A model generated the notes under the pieces. That model worked only from the letters and a program-made list of their open reading frames with translations, had not been told where the DNA came from and searched no databases. A program made the position numbers and the translations under genes. A stretch of 64,000 nt of DNA, from NCBI GenBank assembly GCA_965248925.1, contig CBDFLE010000005.1, forward strand, positions 1,344,001 through 1,408,000, written 5' to 3'. Shown here piece after piece: positions 22,176 through 53,068 of this stretch (the stretch's first letter is position 1; each line of letters begins with the position of its first letter). This DNA comes from Candidatus Multivoradales bacterium. Lineage in GTDB: Bacteria > Acidobacteriota > Thermoanaerobaculia > Multivoradales > J023.

Positions 22176-22739
22176 TCAGCAGACCACGCCGAAGCTCGGC
22201 GCGCCGCGCAGCTGCTCCCAGCTCACCCCGGACAGCCGGCAGTCGAGGAAGACGGCGCCTAGCACGACAGCGCGGTCGAGCACCGCGCCGCGCAGATCGC
22301 AGCCCTTGAAGCTGGCATGGCGCAGATCGGCATGGCGGAACGAGGCCCGCCGCAAGTCGACCTCGACAAACGTGGACCGCTTCGCCGTGACCTGGTCAAA
22401 ACACCCTTCGCTCAAGTTCGAGCGCGAGACTTCAGCACAGTCGAGCTGCGCGCCGCGCCAGTCGGCTGCGACTACCAGGGATTGCTGGATGCTGATGCCA
22501 AAGAGATCCGCCTTGCCGAATCGACAGCGGCTGAGCTCGGCATGGTAGATGACCGCCTCGGTCAGCTGTTGCTCGGCGAAGTCATAGCCTTGGACGATGA
22601 GTAAGGAAAGGTCGATCGACTGCCGACCACGCCGCAAGATTTCGGCGACGCGCAGAGCATCGCACGCAGTAATTTCGGGTGCAGGCACAGGTCCCCCCTG
22701 ACGGCTGCAAATGTCTGAAAATACGGGAGGATCTATCAA
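22176..22739 (-). CDS. Pentapeptide-repeat protein
   Basis: A(D/S)(L/F)xx repeats: ADLFG, ADWRG, VDLRR, ASFRH, ADLRH, CDLRG, AVLDR. Start uncertain. Confidence 0.85.
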   Translation of the reverse strand: MIDPPVFSDICSRQGGPVPAPEITACDALRVAEILRRGRQSIDLSLLIVQGYDFAEQQLTEAVIYHAELSRCRFGKADLFGISIQQSLVVAADWRGAQLDCAEVSRSNLSEGCFDQVTAKRSTFVEVDLRRASFRHADLRHASFKGCDLRGAVLDRAVVLGAVFLDCRLSGVSWEQLRGAPSFGVVC

Positions 22740-22902
22740 CCCAAACCACGCTGCTGCACGCGGTCGCTCAAGCAGTCCCCCCGGACGGCAGGGTCAGTAT
22801 AGTCAGCGCTGGTGGAGTCTCAAACAGGTACTGTTCAGATGGCATTTAGGGCGCGACTGGATACTTCCCCTCCCAGGCACGACCTTGCACTGAGCAGGAT
22901 CG

Positions 22903-23274
22903 TTATTCGGCAGCGACCAATCCACCCTTCCGGGGTAAACGACTCTCAAAGTCGCAGGCGGCCACTGCCGACGCCCCCATCTGCCAGAGACTCTCCAAGA
23001 CTTCGCCTACAGCCTCGATGTAGGGATCTTCACTGGCCCCTTCTCGAGGCTCAGTCTCAAGAAAGAAAGGCGAGTAGACAAAGCCATCGTAATTCGGCTC
23101 GAACCTCGCCGGATCATGGTCCTTATTCGGCCGGACATCGAGTTCAAGATGCTCGCCGTAGAGAGTTGAGACCTTCTGTTCTCCGCGAACCACGGCTGCC
23201 AGGCGAGTGAACAGCTCGTCGCGGGAGAGATCGCTTCCAACAAAGATCTTGCAGTACAAATCCATGGTTGTCAT
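22903..23274 (-). CDS. Putative cognate immunity protein
   Basis: 123 aa, acidic, starts 8 nt after the toxin stop; shares the lower GC of the toxin tip; C-terminal LWQMGASAVAACDFESRLP. Confidence 0.7.
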   Translation of the reverse strand: MTTMDLYCKIFVGSDLSRDELFTRLAAVVRGEQKVSTLYGEHLELDVRPNKDHDPARFEPNYDGFVYSPFFLETEPREGASEDPYIEAVGEVLESLWQMGASAVAACDFESRLPRKGGLVAAE

Positions 23275-23282
23275 TTCCTAGT

Positions 23283-26200
23283 TCACCCGACCGGAATAGT
23301 CGGCGGATTGTCGAAAGGTCCACCCTTGAGGATAACAGAGACATCGACCTCAATACCAAGGAACGCTTCCAGTTCCTTGCGTAGACTGCGCAAACCAGCT
23401 TCACCAGATTGGATTTTACCGGTAGCAATAGCGTGCAACATTGTACGCTCTTTGGCCGATCCAGGATTGACACTCTTGAATCGTTCTCGTAAGAACCGGT
23501 CGAACTCCGACTTCGGCAGAAGAATGGCCACGTCTACATCAGACTTGGCAGCAGCCGTTCCAGCCGCCCTACTGCCTTGGACAACGATGTCATCCCCCAA
23601 ACCTAACTGCCGAGCCCGGTCGCTGATCTTACTGGACAAGAACTCGAATTGCTCGCTGGTAAAGCCTTGTGGAATCTTGCCCGCAAGCGCCTTGAGTTCA
23701 TCGACCCATTTGACCACCGCAGCCTCGATCTTGGCGACCATCGGCCCCAGCTTAGGATGGTTCTTGAAGCGCCTGAAGAACGCCCGAATGTCGATTTTTC
23801 CAAGTAGGTCGAGAAGCCTCTTGGCCGCTGGACGAGCCAACTTCTTGCCGCCCCGGAGCAGGTATTTACCGCCTTTCCCGATCAAGTCACCCACTCCGGG
23901 GATCATCGAAACCATGGCGAACCCCGCATCGAGGTACTTGCCATCCTTGGCGTACCAGGCGGCATTGGCCAGATCCGCGGCCTCGCCGACCCCCGGCACG
24001 ATGCCCGCAACATCCAAAGCTGTATGGCCGATATCACTCCAACTCCAACCGCTGGCCTGGTCCGCCGCCGCCTGCTGTTCGAGATAGCCCTGCTCGACAG
24101 CGATCTCCCGCACCTGCGCCGGCCGCAAACCATCGGGAAATTGATCGCCCCGCTGCACCATGACCTGCGCCGCGACCTGCTCTAACCGCGCCTGATGGGC
24201 TTGGTTGGCACGCTCGAACTGCTCGGCGCCAACCGGGATCTTGATCTGCTGACCAATCTGCAAACGGCGCGGTTCGAGGGCGTTGCCGTTGGCGGCCTGG
24301 ATCTTGGAAACGGTGGTGCCATAGCGCCGCGCCAAGTCCCACAGCGTGTCACCAGCTTGGACGGCGTAGGGTTGACCGCTGCCCAGCAGCTGGCCGGCGT
24401 GGTCGTCGAGCACCGCCCGAGCGGTGATCTCGCCGGCTGCCGCAACCTCGGCGTTGGCGGCCTTGCGCGCCGTCTGATCGGCCACCTTGGCGAGCTGCTG
24501 ACCGGCACGGGCGATGCTCGCCGCATCTCCCGACACCAACGCCTGCTGCAGTTGGTCGACCTCGGCGCCGAGTTTGGCGGCCTCGCCGCTGGGCCGGCTG
24601 TCGCGCACCCAAGCGTGCAGGTCCTTGGCCGCGTCGACCGCCGCCGGCCAATTCTGGCTCTCAATCGCCTGCTGTAGATCACCAGCTTTCTCCAGCCCAC
24701 TCGCGGCATTCTCCAGCCGGCCGCCCAAGCGGTCACCGGACGCCCGCTTCGCTGCTTCACCGAACAGCAGACTGGCCGCCTTGCCGTAATCACCGCTGCT
24801 GATCGCTCTTTGGGCCGCACCGGCGGTCTCCAGCAGACCCGAGGCCGAGTCCAATCGGCGACCGATACGGCTACCGGAAGAGTGGTTGGCGGCAATGCGC
24901 GACAGGCTCTCCAAGGCTGAGGCGTAGTCCCCTGCTTCGACCGCCTGGTAGGCGGTGTTGGCTTCCGACAAGGAGGAAGAGAACTTCAGCAAGCGCTGCT
25001 GCACACGCTCGTTACCAACCATCTTGCTTGCCGCGCCTGCCAAGGCCGCGGCGGCACCGCCATAGTCACCCGCCTCGATCAACTGGTGCGCCCGCCCGGC
25101 ACCGCGCAGGGCATCGGCAAATTGGCTCAAACGACTGCGGCTCGAAGCATCGCCCACCTGCACCTCGGCGGCGGCGGCAAAGGCCTTGGCCGCACCGGCG
25201 AAGTCGCCACTCTCGATCAGGCCCTCGGCACTGGCGGCCTGCTGCATCGCTGCCGCCTGCTCGGCGAGCTTCTTCTTGGTAGCCCGGTCGCCAACGTAGA
25301 CATCAGCCGCTTCGAGCAGCGACGCCGCCGCCTCGCCATAGTCTCCCCGGCGGAAAGCGGAGTAAGCATCGCCAGCCTTGTCGAGGGCCGAACTCGCCTT
25401 CTGCAAGCGCGCTTTGACCTGGGGGTCGCCGACATAGGCCGCCGCCACCCCCGACATCAGGTGCGCCGCTTCCAGGTAATTACCGCTGTCAATCAACTGC
25501 GGCAGACCGCGGGCCGCCTCGAAGGCTTTGGCTCCTTCGAGCAGCTTCTGCTGCATCGGTCCATCGAGATGACCGGCGGCGATCTCTTGCAGGCTGGCGG
25601 CGGCACCGATGTAGTCGCCGTTTTCGATCCGGGCATAGGCGCCGCCCAGATTGGCAAGATCCTGACCCACCGAGAGCATCCGCTCACCGGCTTTGCCGGC
25701 AAATTGGGAGCCAGCGGCGGTGAGAATGCCCGCCGCTTCCAAATAGCGGCCCTGGTCGATCAGCTGCTGTGCCTGGCCAACTCCGGCCAGCGAGTTGGCG
25801 ATCTTCGACAGGGTCGTCACGTCCTCCGGGTCGCGCGCCGAGGCCGGCCCATTCTTGAGATGATCGATCGCACCGGCCAAGGTGGCCGCGGCGCCGGCAT
25901 AGTCACCGTTTTCGAGTGCATTTTGTACGGCGCCGCCGTACTGCGCCCCAAGGTCGACCTTGTTGAGGATATTGAGGGCCCTGGCACCGCCACTGAGCGG
26001 CACGCTGGGATTGGCCGAGACGTACTGGCCGTGCTTGTTCTGCACCAGAGTGCCATCGTTGAGACCCCGGCTGACGGCAAAACTGCGCCCTAGATTGGCG
26101 CCGATGGCGGCGGCTCCGAGATAGTCACCACGCTTGGCGGCAGCGGCGGTGTTGGCGCCCATCTGCACCCGATCTGCCCACTTGACCACTTTGCCCGCGA

Positions 26201-27680
26201 CGCCTGCCAGGCTGTTCGCCGAGGTCTTGACAAAGCCAGACACCGCACTCGCCGCTCCGGCGATCGCACCGAGCCAATTGCCTTGCTTGGCGGCCTTGTA
26301 GGCATTGAGCGCGGCCTGCGCATTGCCGGCATAGGAGGCGACCTTTGACGCTACATTGACCACCTTGCCAGCGACAGCAGAGGTAAAACCACCCGCTACC
26401 CCGGCAACCGCACCGGCCACGCCCACCACTGCTTGTAGCCAATTTCCGTTCTTGACCCCGTTGTAGGCATTGAGCGCGGCATTGGCGGCGATTGCGAAAG
26501 GTGCCGTCACCGGAATGAAGCTGAGAATCGTGAGAACGATCGGCAGAGCCTTCTTGACCGCATCGCCAACCTTCGACCAGAAACTCTTCTTCTTCACCTG
26601 CTCAGAGGTGGTGACCCCGTTATCGTCGTTCTCGATCTTGTAGGTCTGGCTGGAGCGCAGCTTGACCGAATGTTTGCCAGGAATCGACTGGATTTGATTG
26701 ATCTCGTCGTACTTCTGGCGCAACTCCGCGGTGCTGTACTTCAGCGCGTGGCCGGGGATGTTCTGGTTGAACGCCCACAGCTCCTCGCGCATCTGCTTGT
26801 CGCTGACCGGTGGCCCGCCGACCCGAGCATGCACCCAAGTAGCCTGCATCACCGCGCTGAGGCGGACGACCTGGTCAGCGGCGTCGGTGGCTCCCTTGAC
26901 GTAGTTCAGCGCCCCCATCAACTGGCTGCCATCGATCATTTCGGGCGGCACGCGCTCGAAAATCGCCGTCAGGATGGCTTCGTCGTTGAGCTGCCGCTTG
27001 GCCCCGCTCGGTACCTGGCCCTCGAAACCGAGCAGAGCGTGGGCGGCGCGGCCGATGTCGTGCTTGATTTCGGGCGTCAGGGCGCCGGTCTTCTCACCGT
27101 ATTGCAGGCTGGTGTGGATCGACTCGCCACGCCAGTTGATGACGACCTTGCCCGGAGGGTGGCCGGGCAGGATCTCATCCAGGTTGTTGGTGTTTTGGAA
27201 TTGTTGCCAATGCTCGCCGAGGTACTCCTGCAACTGTGCCTTGTCTTGCGGGTTGGGGATCTGTACCGGAACGTTGTAGTCCACCCGCGGCGCGGTGTCG
27301 GGATCCGCTGGTGCGGCTGGTGGCGGAGCCGGGGTATTGCCCTGGCCGCCGATCAACGCTTGCAGCTGAGCCGGATTGATCCCGGCGCGGCGCAGCTCGG
27401 CGAGGTCCAATTCACCAGATTCGAGCATCTGACGGAGCCGCGGATGGGCTCTGAGGTCGCCGCCGGCCGGGCCACCCCCCGCTTCTGCCGGGCGTCCCTC
27501 GGCAAAGCGATCGAAGACGTTGGATTGGCGCTGGCGCTCGACCTCTACATCGGGTGAGAGAGACGCCTTGGTGGGTGCCGCGTCGGGCGCGGGCTCTGAG
27601 CTGGACGGCAGTCCCTGGCTTTCCTGGAACTCACGCACCGCGTCGAGCATCTTCTGCCGGTCGAAGTCGAAGTTGATCAT
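23283..27680 (-). CDS. Large polymorphic toxin: hydrophobic hairpin, ~41-aa helical repeats, LysM, PT-TG, C-terminal nucleotidyltransferase
   Basis: LysM YAVQAGDTLWDLARRYGTTVSKIQAAN...LQIGQQIKIP; PT-TG DIGHTALDVAGIVPGVGEAADLANAAWY; NTase QGSRAAGTAAAKSDVDVAI...EVDVSV; SD AAGGA. Confidence 0.8.
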   Translation of the reverse strand: MINFDFDRQKMLDAVREFQESQGLPSSSEPAPDAAPTKASLSPDVEVERQRQSNVFDRFAEGRPAEAGGGPAGGDLRAHPRLRQMLESGELDLAELRRAGINPAQLQALIGGQGNTPAPPPAAPADPDTAPRVDYNVPVQIPNPQDKAQLQEYLGEHWQQFQNTNNLDEILPGHPPGKVVINWRGESIHTSLQYGEKTGALTPEIKHDIGRAAHALLGFEGQVPSGAKRQLNDEAILTAIFERVPPEMIDGSQLMGALNYVKGATDAADQVVRLSAVMQATWVHARVGGPPVSDKQMREELWAFNQNIPGHALKYSTAELRQKYDEINQIQSIPGKHSVKLRSSQTYKIENDDNGVTTSEQVKKKSFWSKVGDAVKKALPIVLTILSFIPVTAPFAIAANAALNAYNGVKNGNWLQAVVGVAGAVAGVAGGFTSAVAGKVVNVASKVASYAGNAQAALNAYKAAKQGNWLGAIAGAASAVSGFVKTSANSLAGVAGKVVKWADRVQMGANTAAAAKRGDYLGAAAIGANLGRSFAVSRGLNDGTLVQNKHGQYVSANPSVPLSGGARALNILNKVDLGAQYGGAVQNALENGDYAGAAATLAGAIDHLKNGPASARDPEDVTTLSKIANSLAGVGQAQQLIDQGRYLEAAGILTAAGSQFAGKAGERMLSVGQDLANLGGAYARIENGDYIGAAASLQEIAAGHLDGPMQQKLLEGAKAFEAARGLPQLIDSGNYLEAAHLMSGVAAAYVGDPQVKARLQKASSALDKAGDAYSAFRRGDYGEAAASLLEAADVYVGDRATKKKLAEQAAAMQQAASAEGLIESGDFAGAAKAFAAAAEVQVGDASSRSRLSQFADALRGAGRAHQLIEAGDYGGAAAALAGAASKMVGNERVQQRLLKFSSSLSEANTAYQAVEAGDYASALESLSRIAANHSSGSRIGRRLDSASGLLETAGAAQRAISSGDYGKAASLLFGEAAKRASGDRLGGRLENAASGLEKAGDLQQAIESQNWPAAVDAAKDLHAWVRDSRPSGEAAKLGAEVDQLQQALVSGDAASIARAGQQLAKVADQTARKAANAEVAAAGEITARAVLDDHAGQLLGSGQPYAVQAGDTLWDLARRYGTTVSKIQAANGNALEPRRLQIGQQIKIPVGAEQFERANQAHQARLEQVAAQVMVQRGDQFPDGLRPAQVREIAVEQGYLEQQAAADQASGWSWSDIGHTALDVAGIVPGVGEAADLANAAWYAKDGKYLDAGFAMVSMIPGVGDLIGKGGKYLLRGGKKLARPAAKRLLDLLGKIDIRAFFRRFKNHPKLGPMVAKIEAAVVKWVDELKALAGKIPQGFTSEQFEFLSSKISDRARQLGLGDDIVVQGSRAAGTAAAKSDVDVAILLPKSEFDRFLRERFKSVNPGSAKERTMLHAIATGKIQSGEAGLRSLRKELEAFLGIEVDVSVILKGGPFDNPPTIPVG

Positions 27681-50394: not shown

Positions 50395-50732
50395 CCGCGA
50401 GAATACCGTCCGCCAGCCATTGGATCTCGCCTCCATCGTGCAGACAAAGACTGAGAAGGCCGGAATCGGCAGGCTCTCATGGCCTTGGAGACTGCTTTCT
50501 CGGTACCGATCAGCAGCAGCACTGATGAAACCCATCAGGGTCACCGATAGGGTTGCGAATCGGCACACCACCAGCGATCCAAAAAGCACTTTGCCCGGCG
50601 TCGATCGGGGTCGGCTGGACATCGATATCGCGGATGATAGCCTCAGTCAGGAAGACACTCATCGCTCGCCTATCCCGGCCTTAACTGGGTCAGCTTGAGC
50701 ACAATTGCCAATTACTGTTGGAGAGGACCCCG

Positions 50733-52109
50733 ATGGCCGAGGCCACCCCAATCCCCGTACCCGTCTCTTTGCCCAGCGCCACCAGCAGCCCACCGAGCGG
50801 CACCGCGAGCGCGGTGAGTGATGCTGCCGGCTCGGCAAACGCAAATACCGCAAGCGAGCGTTTCCACCAGGTTCGAGCTTGGACCGAGACCCTCTGCGAG
50901 CCTCTCAATACCGAAGATTATGTTGTCCAATCGATGCCCGACACCAGCCCGACCAAATGGCATCTAGCCCATACCAGCTGGTTCTTCGAGACTTTCCTGC
51001 TGGCAGCCAACGTCAGTGGTTACCATGCCGACCCGACCTACGCCTTCTTGTTCAACTCCTACTACAACAGCCTTGGCAAGCAGCATGCCCGGCCGCAACG
51101 CGGTCTGCTATCGCGGCCGACAGTGGCCCAGGTAAATGCTTATCGCGAGCAGGTAGACGCCGACATGATCGAGCTGCTCAGCGGCGACGAGCTACCGCCA
51201 TCGCTACTCAACCTGCTGGAGATCGGTCTCAATCACGAACAACAGCATCAGGAGCTGATGCTCACCGACCTCAAACACATGTTCTCTTGCAACCCCTTGC
51301 GTCCGACCTATCGCCCGGCCCCTCTGACCGCCGCGGCCACCGCGGTCGAGATGGTCTGGCACCCCTTTGCCGAAGGTTTGCAGCAAATAGGCCATCGCGG
51401 CAGCGGCTTTGCATTCGACAACGAGGGGCCCCGGCACCAGACTTTCGCCGCGGCATTCAAGATCGCCTCTCGGCCGGTGACCTGCGAAGAGTTCTCAGCC
51501 TTCATCGCCGACGGCGGTTATCAGCGCCCCGAGCTGTGGTTGTCGGACGGTTGGAGCACAGTGCAGGAGCAAGGCTGGCGAGCGCCGCTCTACTGGTTCG
51601 AGGAAGATGAGACTTGGCAGCAGCAGACCTTGAGTGGTTGTCGCGGCGTCAACAGTAGAGAGCCGGTCTGCCACGTCAGCCTCTTTGAAGCCGACGCCTA
51701 TGCTCGCTGGGCTGGCGCCCGCTTGCCGACCGAGACCGAGTGGGAAGTCGCCGCCGACCACTGGATCGGGCCCAACGGCCGCGGGGAGGATTCGCCGGAG
51801 GCCAATCTGGCCGAAGGCGGCTTTTACCACCCGCGACCGTTGGCCCCGCGGGCCAGGCACCGCCAGATGCTCGGCGATGTCTGGGAGTGGACCCGCAGCG
51901 CCTACTCCCCTTATCCGGGCTTTCAACCACCGTCTGGAGCCTTGGGCGAGTACAACGCCAAGTTCATGAACAACCAGAACGTCTTGCGCGGCGGCTCTTG
52001 CGCCACTCCGCGGTCACACATCCGCAGCACGTACCGCAACTTCTTCCCCGCCGCCACCCGCTGGCAGTTCACCGGCTTCCGTCTGGCCCGCGATGGTGGT
52101 GCGGCATGA
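50733..52109 (+). CDS. egtB: Ergothioneine sulfoxide synthase
   Basis: QSMPDTSPTKWHLAHTSWFFE, HEQQHQEL, FDNE, GDVWEW, GEYNAKFM, YRNFF. Confidence 0.93.
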   Translation: MAEATPIPVPVSLPSATSSPPSGTASAVSDAAGSANANTASERFHQVRAWTETLCEPLNTEDYVVQSMPDTSPTKWHLAHTSWFFETFLLAANVSGYHADPTYAFLFNSYYNSLGKQHARPQRGLLSRPTVAQVNAYREQVDADMIELLSGDELPPSLLNLLEIGLNHEQQHQELMLTDLKHMFSCNPLRPTYRPAPLTAAATAVEMVWHPFAEGLQQIGHRGSGFAFDNEGPRHQTFAAAFKIASRPVTCEEFSAFIADGGYQRPELWLSDGWSTVQEQGWRAPLYWFEEDETWQQQTLSGCRGVNSREPVCHVSLFEADAYARWAGARLPTETEWEVAADHWIGPNGRGEDSPEANLAEGGFYHPRPLAPRARHRQMLGDVWEWTRSAYSPYPGFQPPSGALGEYNAKFMNNQNVLRGGSCATPRSHIRSTYRNFFPAATRWQFTGFRLARDGGAA

Positions 52110-53068
52110 GCGCTACCAGCGAACTGCTCGACTTCGCACCGCGAATCACAACCCTGATGGAAGACGTGCTCACCGGCCTCAGCCAAAGGCCCAAGACGCT
52201 GCCGTGCAAATACCTCTACGACGAAACCGGCTCCCACCTGTTCGAGGCCATTTGCACCCTCGGCTCTTACTACCCGACCCGCACCGAGCTGGCGATCATG
52301 GACCGCCACATCGGCGAGATGGCCAGCCGGTTGGGCGTCGCATGTCAGCTGATCGAGTACGGTAGCGGCAGTGGCATGAAGACCGAAATCCTGCTCAGCA
52401 ACCTGGACCAGCCGGCGGCGTATGTGCCGATCGAAATTTCCCGCGAGCACCTGGAGCGCTCCGCCCGTCATCTGGCCAGGCGCTTCCCGCTGCTCAAAGT
52501 GCTGCCGGTTTGCGCCGACTACACCGCCGACTACCAGATCCCCTCGCCGCCGGGCAAGGTAGCTCGGCGAGCGGTCTATTTCCCAGGTTCAACCATCGGC
52601 AATTTCGATCGCCCCGACGCGCTTTCGTTTCTGCGCAAGATCGCCCGCGTATGTGGCGCGGGGGGAGCGCTGCTGATCGGTGTCGACCTGCACAAAGACG
52701 CGGCGATCCTGGAGCGGGCCTACAACGATCCGGCAAGAGTCACCGCCGCTTTCAACCTCAACCTGCTCGACCGCCTGAATCGCGAGCTGGATACCGGCTT
52801 CGACCTCGAACGGTTCCGCCACCAGGCGATCTGGGATGCCACTGCTGGACGCATCGAGATGCACTTGGTAAGCCTCGGCGCGCAGACCGTGCGCATCGGC
52901 GAGGAGCGGATCCATTTCGCCGACGGCGAGACCATTTGCACCGAGCATTCCAACAAATACACCCTGGAGGGTTTCCGCCGCCTGGCCGAGGAAGCAGGTT
53001 TCCAGGTACAGCAGGTGTGGACCGACGACCGAAAGTGGTTCAGCGTGCAGTATCTGGTGGTTGCGTGA
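52106..53068 (+). CDS. egtD: L-histidine N-alpha-methyltransferase
   Basis: ATGA overlap with egtB; LPCKYLYD, YYPTRTE, EYGSGSG, FPGSTIGNF, VTAAFNLN, RIEMHL, TEHSNKY. Confidence 0.93.
   Translation: MSATSELLDFAPRITTLMEDVLTGLSQRPKTLPCKYLYDETGSHLFEAICTLGSYYPTRTELAIMDRHIGEMASRLGVACQLIEYGSGSGMKTEILLSNLDQPAAYVPIEISREHLERSARHLARRFPLLKVLPVCADYTADYQIPSPPGKVARRAVYFPGSTIGNFDRPDALSFLRKIARVCGAGGALLIGVDLHKDAAILERAYNDPARVTAAFNLNLLDRLNRELDTGFDLERFRHQAIWDATAGRIEMHLVSLGAQTVRIGEERIHFADGETICTEHSNKYTLEGFRRLAEEAGFQVQQVWTDDRKWFSVQYLVVA

Follow-up and report, generated by a model that had tools for sequence, protein, structure and literature searches.

The window analysed here is a 64,000-nucleotide stretch of contig CBDFLE010000005.1 (positions 1,344,001 to 1,408,000 of the forward strand; assembly GCA_965248925.1) from a Candidatus Multivoradales bacterium of the phylum Acidobacteriota. 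It carries a gene for a protein of 1465 amino acids and, directly behind it, a gene for a small acidic protein of 123 amino acids. The two very probably constitute a polymorphic toxin and its immunity protein, with the toxin acting by nucleotidyl transfer; toxicity and the transfer of a nucleotide monophosphate (NMP) are properties that we infer from sequence comparisons and structural models. A first-pass annotation, made by a model from the letters and the open reading frames (ORFs) of the window, had proposed a polymorphic toxin with a nucleotidyltransferase (NTase) tip and a dedicated immunity gene. Our analysis supports that reading, as the tip is modular and linked to the immunity gene and the carrier can bear another tip. 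Within the polymorphic-toxin paradigm, the pair represents an uncharacterised enzymatic tip class together with a new immunity family. The features that carry this argument are the following.

23283..27680 (−): candidate polymorphic toxin gene P0001, 1465 aa, stop codon counted in (ORF list and translation)
22903..23274 (−): putative immunity gene P0002, 123 aa, acidic (ORF list); the database copy begins at M4 (120 aa)
23286..23681 (−): toxin tip, aa 1334-1465, a predicted minimal Pol-beta-type NTase that opens at IPQG (NTP_transf_2)
23670-23681 (tip opening): IPQG motif, toxin aa 1335-1338
23568..23576 (−): G1369-S1370-R1371, the predicted NTase hG[GS] motif (family conservation)
23532..23540 (−): D1381-V-D1383, the predicted metal-binding DxD (family conservation)
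23343..23345 (−): D1446 (EVDVSV), the predicted third catalytic carboxylate, within the predicted immunity interface
23349..23477 (−): family-specific insert, tip residues 69-111, comprising NPGSAKERTMLHAIATGKIQSGEAGL and the next helix (conservation and predicted contacts)

Both ORFs were placed correctly at the outset, as was the gap of 8 nucleotides between them: the TGA of the toxin gene is followed by actaggaa, in which aggaa resembles a ribosome-binding site, and then by the ATG of the 123-aa ORF. In a Pfam scan of the whole toxin, NTP_transf_2 (PF01909) matches aa 1350-1452 with an E-value of 7.7e-08 and scores 33.1 bits, above its cut-off of 21; restricting the scan to the last 256 aa raises the score to 37.2 bits. 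The only other matches to these 256 residues at E<=10 are Polbeta, MTPAP-like_central and a chance Diphtheria_T row, and Protein Atlas assigns the tip to generic NTase clusters only. The tip motif, VVQGSRAAGTAAAKSDVDVAILL, reads as VVQ-G1369-S1370-R1371, eight residues, S-D1381-V-D1383-VAI and, later, EV-D1446-VSV. The Pol-beta NTase signature that had been claimed for the last ~130 aa is present, with the correction that the spacer from GSR to SD is eight residues and not seven, and the third Asp that had been placed in EVDVSV is D1446. Across 150 family sequences, the Gly, the Ser and both Asp residues of the DxD are found in 150/150, the Arg in 149/150 and the third Asp in 146/150. Because the Gly, the Ser and the DxD are invariant and the third Asp is so rarely replaced, the members of the family are, by this pattern of conservation, constrained enzymes and not decayed domains. 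The PQG residues at the opening of the tip are likewise conserved (143/150, 137/150 and 144/150) and form coil in the AlphaFold 2 (AF2) model; IPQG may mark a recombination or processing junction of the cassette.

Structurally, the tip is modelled by AF2 as an NTase core with a predicted local distance difference test (pLDDT) value of 96.6, and the alpha-beta-alpha-beta-alpha-beta NTase fold is present. Two extra helices (tip residues 76-87 and 98-108) sit between the strand that bears the DxD and the strand that bears the third Asp, and the family-specific insert is strongly conserved in the 150 sequences and holds nearly all of the predicted contacts with the immunity protein. Structural comparison of the model with VIA-align places minimal NTases (MNTs) in six of the top seven rows (Z 9.0-6.2, root-mean-square deviation (rmsd) 2.7-3.5 Å, 82-94 residues). 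The best match is HI0073 (1no5_B; Z 9.0, rmsd 2.7 Å over 92 residues), followed by 8xeh_E (Z 7.8), an MNT solved together with its HEPN partner, 2rff (7.0) and 1wot (6.6), and further down by SO_3166 MntA (5yep_A; 6.3), 1ylq (6.2) and ANT(4') (6.0). A profile search against the PDB also lists MNTs first, with HI0073 at E 3e-4, the MNT antitoxin 7ae2 at E 5e-4 and SO_3166 MntA at E 7e-3. Together, motif, profile and modelled fold identify the tip as a predicted member of the Pol-beta NTase superfamily, and more precisely as a minimal, MNT-type NTase. An aminoglycoside-resistance NTase was considered and rejected, as the fold match reaches only Z 6.0 and such a role is incompatible with a C-terminal seat on toxin carriers.

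The tip belongs to a large and modular family. A HMMER scan of 1.84 billion representatives (50% identity) with aa 1270-1465 as the query returned 442 representatives at E<=1e-3, 302 at E<=1e-10 and 102 at E<=1e-30. Their common unit spans query residues ~65-195 (toxin aa ~1334-1464) and begins with the conserved IPQG. Among the best 149 of the 442 matches, the tip lies at most 12 residues from the C-terminus in 147, in proteins whose lengths range from 113 to 1247 aa; one of the just two non-C-terminal cases is P0086 (603 aa), where the tip occupies aa 69-209. The carriers were scanned with Pfam for 109 matches of at least 230 aa, a set that leaves out 6 more of such length and 34 shorter ones. 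NTP_transf_2 is recognised at E<=1e-4 in 96 of these 109 relatives, and 28 of the 109 contain recognised trafficking or pre-toxin domains. By count among the 109, the carrier domains are DUF4280 and RHS (four each); WXG100, WXG100_2, LXG, T7SS_signal, PAAR and eCIS_core (two each); and PT-HINT, PT-TG, PT-VENN, PrsW, DUF6861, LysM and Tox-HNH-HHH (one each), with a weak, sub-threshold Phage_GPD in one. Several further relatives start with the RHS core end motif, as seen in their printed N-termini. The names given to these proteins in databases are generic, for example 'WXG100 family type VII secretion target' or 'nucleotidyltransferase domain-containing protein'. The first-pass annotation had named modularity of the tip as a check on its reading, and the same C-terminal tip is indeed carried by many unrelated scaffolds; to judge from these sequences, one putative toxin domain ends differing carriers, as is expected of polymorphic toxins. 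In one relative, P0029 (714 aa), a Tox-HNH-HHH nuclease directly precedes the NTase tip, which places two toxin domains in tandem.

The second defining feature of such systems is a cognate immunity gene immediately downstream of the tip, and both the gene neighbourhoods and the modelled complex described below indicate that this is the case here. When one genome per species was scanned with an 8-sequence alignment, 72 tip loci were recovered from Bacillota, Actinomycetota, Bacteroidota, Planctomycetota, Acidobacteriota, Myxococcota, Cyanobacteria, Pseudomonadota, Campylobacterota and Verrucomicrobiota. Directly 3' of the tip, 68 of the 72 encode a homologue of P0002. In the other four, either the contig ends at the tip (L033 and L060) or the tip is a fragment (L077 and L079). 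Constant linkage to the downstream gene, which had likewise been set as a check, is thus observed as one small-protein family adjoining the tip across genomes. In seven loci (L023, L038 from Enterococcus faecalis, L054, L057, L062, L065 and L067), no start codon is present in the tip frame from the upstream stop as far as the match, and an immunity gene follows. By their sequence, these look like the orphan tip/immunity cassettes that are typical of polymorphic toxin loci.

The 123-aa ORF has an isoelectric point (pI) of 4.54, with 23 Asp or Glu residues against 12 Lys or Arg, in agreement with its earlier description as acidic, and it has no Pfam or NCBIfam match. A word-indexed search with the single immunity sequence found 2 relatives; the family emerged via gene neighbourhoods and a profile, with which 226 cluster representatives of 61-233 aa were collected. 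Acidity is a property of the whole family (median pI 4.43, and below 5.5 in 62 of 63 members). None of 41 members has a plausible Pfam family, and NCBIfam holds no model for the family. The AF2 model of the immunity protein has a pLDDT of 93.4 and forms an alpha/beta sandwich for which Foldseek finds no convincing solved relative (best E 1.2e-2). With VIA-align, the best Z of 7.8 is tied among unrelated alpha/beta proteins, and one CdiI is matched at Z 7.5. No fold assignment was drawn from these matches. At least 10 of 120 listed family members, including P0180, P0197, P0198, P0230, P0234, P0237, P0249 and P0276, are named '1,4-dihydroxy-6-naphthoate synthase' (MqnD) in NCBI or UniRef at lengths of ~120 aa. 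To judge from the sequences, this naming looks like a propagated misannotation.

Binding between the tip and the immunity protein is supported by structure prediction. The modelled complex reached an ipSAE interface score of 0.87 in 3/3 runs, whereas the highest-scoring of 3 controls had 0.00. Of 157 solved complexes, 116 attain this mark, as do 2 of 215 mismatched pairs, counts that apply only approximately to the present complex. At least 93% of contacts are common to the runs, and the pLDDT of the partners is at least 89. On the tip side, the predicted interface consists of residues 69-113, which comprise the insert NPGSAKERTMLHAI.TGKIQ.GEAGL, the next helix and D113 (= D1446). On the immunity side, it consists of residues 5-11 (LYCKIFV), 62-66 (DGFVY) and 104-110 (AVAACDFE). 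The most conserved segments of both partners therefore meet at the predicted interface.

Upstream of the tip, the toxin is built from a carrier whose parts are arranged as follows.

26553..27263 (−): N-terminal carrier domain, aa 140-376, conserved, of no known family (BLASTP alignment to P0155)
26121..26552 (−): Gly/Ala-rich hydrophobic stretch, aa 377-520, which holds SFIPVTAPFAIAANAA (grand average of hydropathy +0.54)
24516..25907 (−): about nine helical repeats of 46 aa, diverged and with GDYxxAA as their core, aa 592-1055 (regular-expression spacing 44-46 aa)
24234..24368 (−): LysM (PF01476), aa 1105-1149 (Pfam E 5.8e-15; 55.4 bits, cut-off 20.9)
23856..24038 (−): pre-toxin motif LDVAGIVPGVGEAADLANAAWY...MIPGVGD, aa 1215-1275, common to P0030 and P0102
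23682..23855 (−): basic linker, aa 1276-1333, pI 11.1, with a GC content at third codon positions (GC3) of 0.73, the native codon usage

The carrier is rare, and a word-indexed search found 2 relatives besides itself. One of these, the 1401-aa metagenomic protein P0155, has the N-domain, the Gly/Ala stretch, the GDY-AA repeats and LysM in common with the window carrier. The two align by BLASTP over a 622-column segment at 30% identity, and the 16-aa block SFIPVTAPFAIAANAA is identical. The C-terminus of P0155 is a WHH/HNH nuclease (PF14414, 55.5 bits) and not an NTase, so that, by the sequence of this single relative, the same carrier is found with a different tip, which is a third property of polymorphic toxins. 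The Gly/Ala-rich stretch is possibly membrane-inserting. The N-terminal domain has no match in Pfam or NCBIfam, and the leads from Protein Atlas for the carrier are all below 0.9. LysM had been claimed from the start and is found well above its gathering threshold. The claim of a PT-TG pre-toxin domain fares differently: the motif is real, and PF14449 is unmatched at E<=1 in the whole protein and at E<=10 in the last 256 aa, searches in which the HMMER filters may conceal very weak matches. P0030 (E 8e-10) and P0102 (E 4e-7) also have the sequence LDVAGIVPGVGEAADLANAAWY..MIPGVGD ahead of the same tip, and the basic linker is likewise found in front of it in P0083, P0102 and P0126, with matches that begin at query residues 5-9. 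We regard the motif as a putative pre-toxin-like element whose membership in PT-TG is not demonstrated. Among the 72 tip loci, the carrier is absent except for a match to 39 aa of the pre-toxin motif. On these comparisons, the window carrier is an undescribed, putative delivery scaffold.

The base composition of the locus changes along the gene. GC content is 0.52-0.57 over ~22800-23800, compared to 0.64-0.70 upstream. The tip (aa 1334-1465) and the immunity gene have GC3 values of 0.545 and 0.62, respectively, whereas aa 1-1333 have 0.73-0.80 and neighbouring genes 0.72-0.84. The drop in GC and codon usage that the first-pass annotation described is thus real, and the switch lies at ~aa 1330-1350 (~23680), slightly inside the claimed position of 23800, where it coincides with the IPQG motif. 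Because P0155 bears another tip and GC3 steps at IPQG, the sequence evidence fits replacement of the tip and the immunity gene, as a cassette, on a resident carrier. The next gene 3' of the immunity gene, at 22176-22739 (−), has as its product a pentapeptide-repeat protein of 187 aa (PF00805, E 6e-17) and a GC3 of 0.75; as this value is native, the gene is probably outside the cassette. Four sequencing runs, all from one sample and possibly including the source of the window itself, each give one contig across 22850-24400 with 0 differences. The junction did not arise as an artefact in one assembly. Neither the tip nor the carrier nor the immunity gene has a paralogue in the organism's own 7.98-Mb genome. 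A promoter and terminator scan found sites no commoner than in shuffled sequence, and Tandem Repeats Finder detected no DNA tandem repeats, including in the region that encodes the protein repeats.

From these observations, a mechanism can be proposed. The rare LysM carrier (aa 1-1333) would display a horizontally swapped, 132-aa C-terminal tip, which would be delivered into the cytoplasm of a competitor. There, the GS...DxD...D centre would use a nucleoside triphosphate (NTP) to attach an NMP to a hydroxyl group on a target that is essential and universally conserved. The family-specific insert probably forms the acceptor site, which the immunity protein would block. In the producer, the co-transcribed 123-aa acidic protein would provide protection by clamping the insert beside the third catalytic Asp. 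The NTP used, the acceptor, the toxicity and the export route are elements that we infer. For the acceptor, we prefer a protein side chain, at a confidence that falls a little short of even, because the nearest relatives of the tip are MntA/MNT enzymes that AMPylate (adenylylate) HEPN toxins; the choice is made by analogy with these enzymes.

Several findings weigh against this proposal. The calibration of the ipSAE score is only approximate for this complex, because the complex was scored with our own alignments. G36, S37, D48 and D50 of the tip lie outside the predicted interface, so that occlusion of the active site is partial in the model. Foldseek ranks MNTs first as well but does so weakly (best E 4e-3, template modelling score 0.4-0.5), and phmmer with the last 256 aa as a single sequence gave nothing significant against the PDB (best E 0.2). 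The charge of the tip (pI 8.25, 18 Lys or Arg against 17 Asp or Glu, net ~+1; family median pI 8.26) does not discriminate between targets. With regard to export, neither a signal peptide nor a known trafficking domain was found in the carrier with Pfam and NCBIfam. The carrier was not found in 40 searched genomes of the same family or order. TssC (PF05943), the sheath protein of the T6SS (type VI secretion system), was not found in the 96.9%-complete genome, in a search confined to this one secretion system. Finally, the neighbours of the toxin gene are housekeeping genes and do not form a secretion cluster.

The main alternative, which we hold to be possible though unlikely, retains the same toxin/immunity pair and exchanges the protein acceptor for the 3'-OH of RNA, such that the tip would extend tRNA acceptor ends and block aminoacylation and translation. 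There are NTase-fold toxins that lengthen the 3' ends of tRNA, as reported for MenT3 in the available portion of PMC13617354. Furthermore, a universal tRNA target fits the spread of the tip family over ~ten phyla, the strong acidity of the immunity family is compatible with nucleic-acid mimicry, and the CCA-adding enzyme and TUTases (terminal uridylyltransferases) are among the VIA-align matches (Z 4.6-5.4). However, the closest relatives by both profile and fold are protein-AMPylating MNTs and not RNA NTases. At E<=1, the tip region matches just NTP_transf_2, Polbeta and LysM and no MenT/AbiEii-type model, and a tip with a net charge of ~+1 has no additional RNA-binding lobe within its 132 aa.

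Third in order, and considerably less likely again, is a small-molecule acceptor for the same pair, whereby the tip would either synthesise a nucleotide that is toxic or acts as a signal, or deplete an NTP pool, like Tas1. RelA/SpoT-like NTases are the sole Pol-beta-fold tips named in the accessible parts of PMC3482391 and in those of PMC11925235, a review of T6SS effectors, and the fold comparison also matches aminoglycoside NTases (Z 6.0), whose acceptors are small molecules. Nevertheless, no RelA/SpoT or CD-NTase Pfam model matched the tip, the fold matches to CD-NTases are weak (Foldseek E 0.04-0.3), and the tip does not have their second lobe. An acceptor outside protein, RNA or tRNA, and small nucleotides is improbable. 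Equally improbable is the absence of any deliverable weapon here, with the gene being either a stranded, intact acquisition or an envelope LysM protein with a self-directed or regulatory NTase and a partner ORF: the lack of a detected trafficking domain, signal peptide and secretion cluster (Pfam, NCBIfam, gene neighbourhood and TssC) and the rarity of the carrier (2 relatives, and no instance in 40 related genomes or at the 72 tip loci) would suit this explanation, as would the finding that no RNA data set contains the locus, but the ORF is intact across 1465 codons, the native codon usage of the carrier beside a tip and immunity gene that alone are foreign implies a functional cassette replacement, the WHH nuclease of the sister carrier has no plausible housekeeping role, and the tip family is elsewhere tied to bona fide delivery domains.

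Elsewhere in the window, at 50718-53068 (+), an EgtB-like gene (DinB_2 plus FGE-sulfatase) overlaps a gene for an EgtD-like histidine methyltransferase (Methyltransf_33, E 1e-111). The two look like a pair for the biosynthesis of ergothioneine.

Polymorphic toxins are among the main sources from which novel toxic chemistries, and tools based on them, are drawn. Returning to the toxin/immunity pair, we consider it somewhat more probable than the contrary that its tip founds a phylum-spanning class. In this class, an MNT-type NTase would serve as a weapon that NMPylates a universal cytoplasmic target, would be countered by an immunity protein with a new fold, and would be borne by T6SS, type VII secretion system, contact-dependent inhibition (CDI), RHS and extracellular contractile injection system carriers as well as by the carrier with LysM and 46-aa repeats. 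If so, nucleotidyl transfer by minimal NTases would join the repertoire of secreted antibacterial effectors. The tip family rides every major contact-dependent delivery system, its hosts include gut, soil and marine bacteria, and one biochemical result would lead to the annotation of hundreds of genes in ~ten phyla. The immunity family, with its 226 cluster representatives, is without a family model, and correction of the MqnD name matters for metabolic reconstructions.

Our survey of the full-text literature, which largely excludes subscription journals and thus leaves an earlier report possible, revealed no description of a polymorphic-toxin tip of the MNT/NTP_transf_2 type. In the available text of the 2012 survey PMC3482391, supplementary toxin-domain tables aside, RelA/SpoT-like enzymes are the only nucleotidyltransferases mentioned. 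Such tips, including Tas1, are a functional parallel in that they are Pol-beta-related, secreted and antibacterial and are encoded next to an immunity gene, as described in the available sections of PMC3482391 and PMC11925235. Their chemistry is that of a pyrophosphokinase, and they form a different family from the window tip. The MenT/AbiEii toxins of type IV toxin-antitoxin (TA) systems also have an NTase fold and are toxic by nucleotidyl transfer, as is proposed for the tip, but they are intracellular TA toxins of a different and larger family with other antitoxins, whereas the window tip is of a putatively secreted type. Membership in MenT/AbiEii or RelA/SpoT was rejected because no such Pfam model matched the tip. 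A precedent for a secreted tip that NMPylates a target protein is provided by Fic/Doc tips, according to the accessible portion of PMC3710099, although their fold and catalytic motif are unrelated to those of the window tip.

The closest likeness is to the MNT/MntA antitoxins (HI0073, SO_3166, 7ae9 and 8xeh), which have the same minimal Pol-beta fold and the GSxxxGxxxxxSDxD...D motif of the tip. The statement in the first-pass annotation that MNT domains are usually antitoxins of HEPN RNases agrees with these being the closest structural and profile matches. MNTs AMPylate protein, as PDB entry 7ae9 shows by its title ('mono-AMPylated HEPN toxin in complex with MNT antitoxin'), and AMPylation of HEPN partners by MNTs was predicted in PMC3710099, as far as its available text goes. 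'MntA family adenylyltransferase antitoxin', a name that likewise points to AMPylation, is the NCBIfam model nearest to the tip. Assignment to this type VII TA antitoxin model (NF047752) was rejected, given that the tip scores 23.4 bits against a cut-off of 60. A HEPN partner was rejected as well: the adjacent gene has no Pfam match and its product models as an alpha/beta sandwich, and HEPN domains are helical (PMC3710099, in the same available text). Unlike the MNT antitoxins, the window tip has a conserved ~40-aa insert between the DxD and the third Asp. The two also differ in role. MntA acts as an antidote, whereas the window NTase is the putative toxin tip of a family whose members are fused to secretion carriers, and if the reading offered here is true, the role of the MNT domain has been inverted from antidote to weapon.

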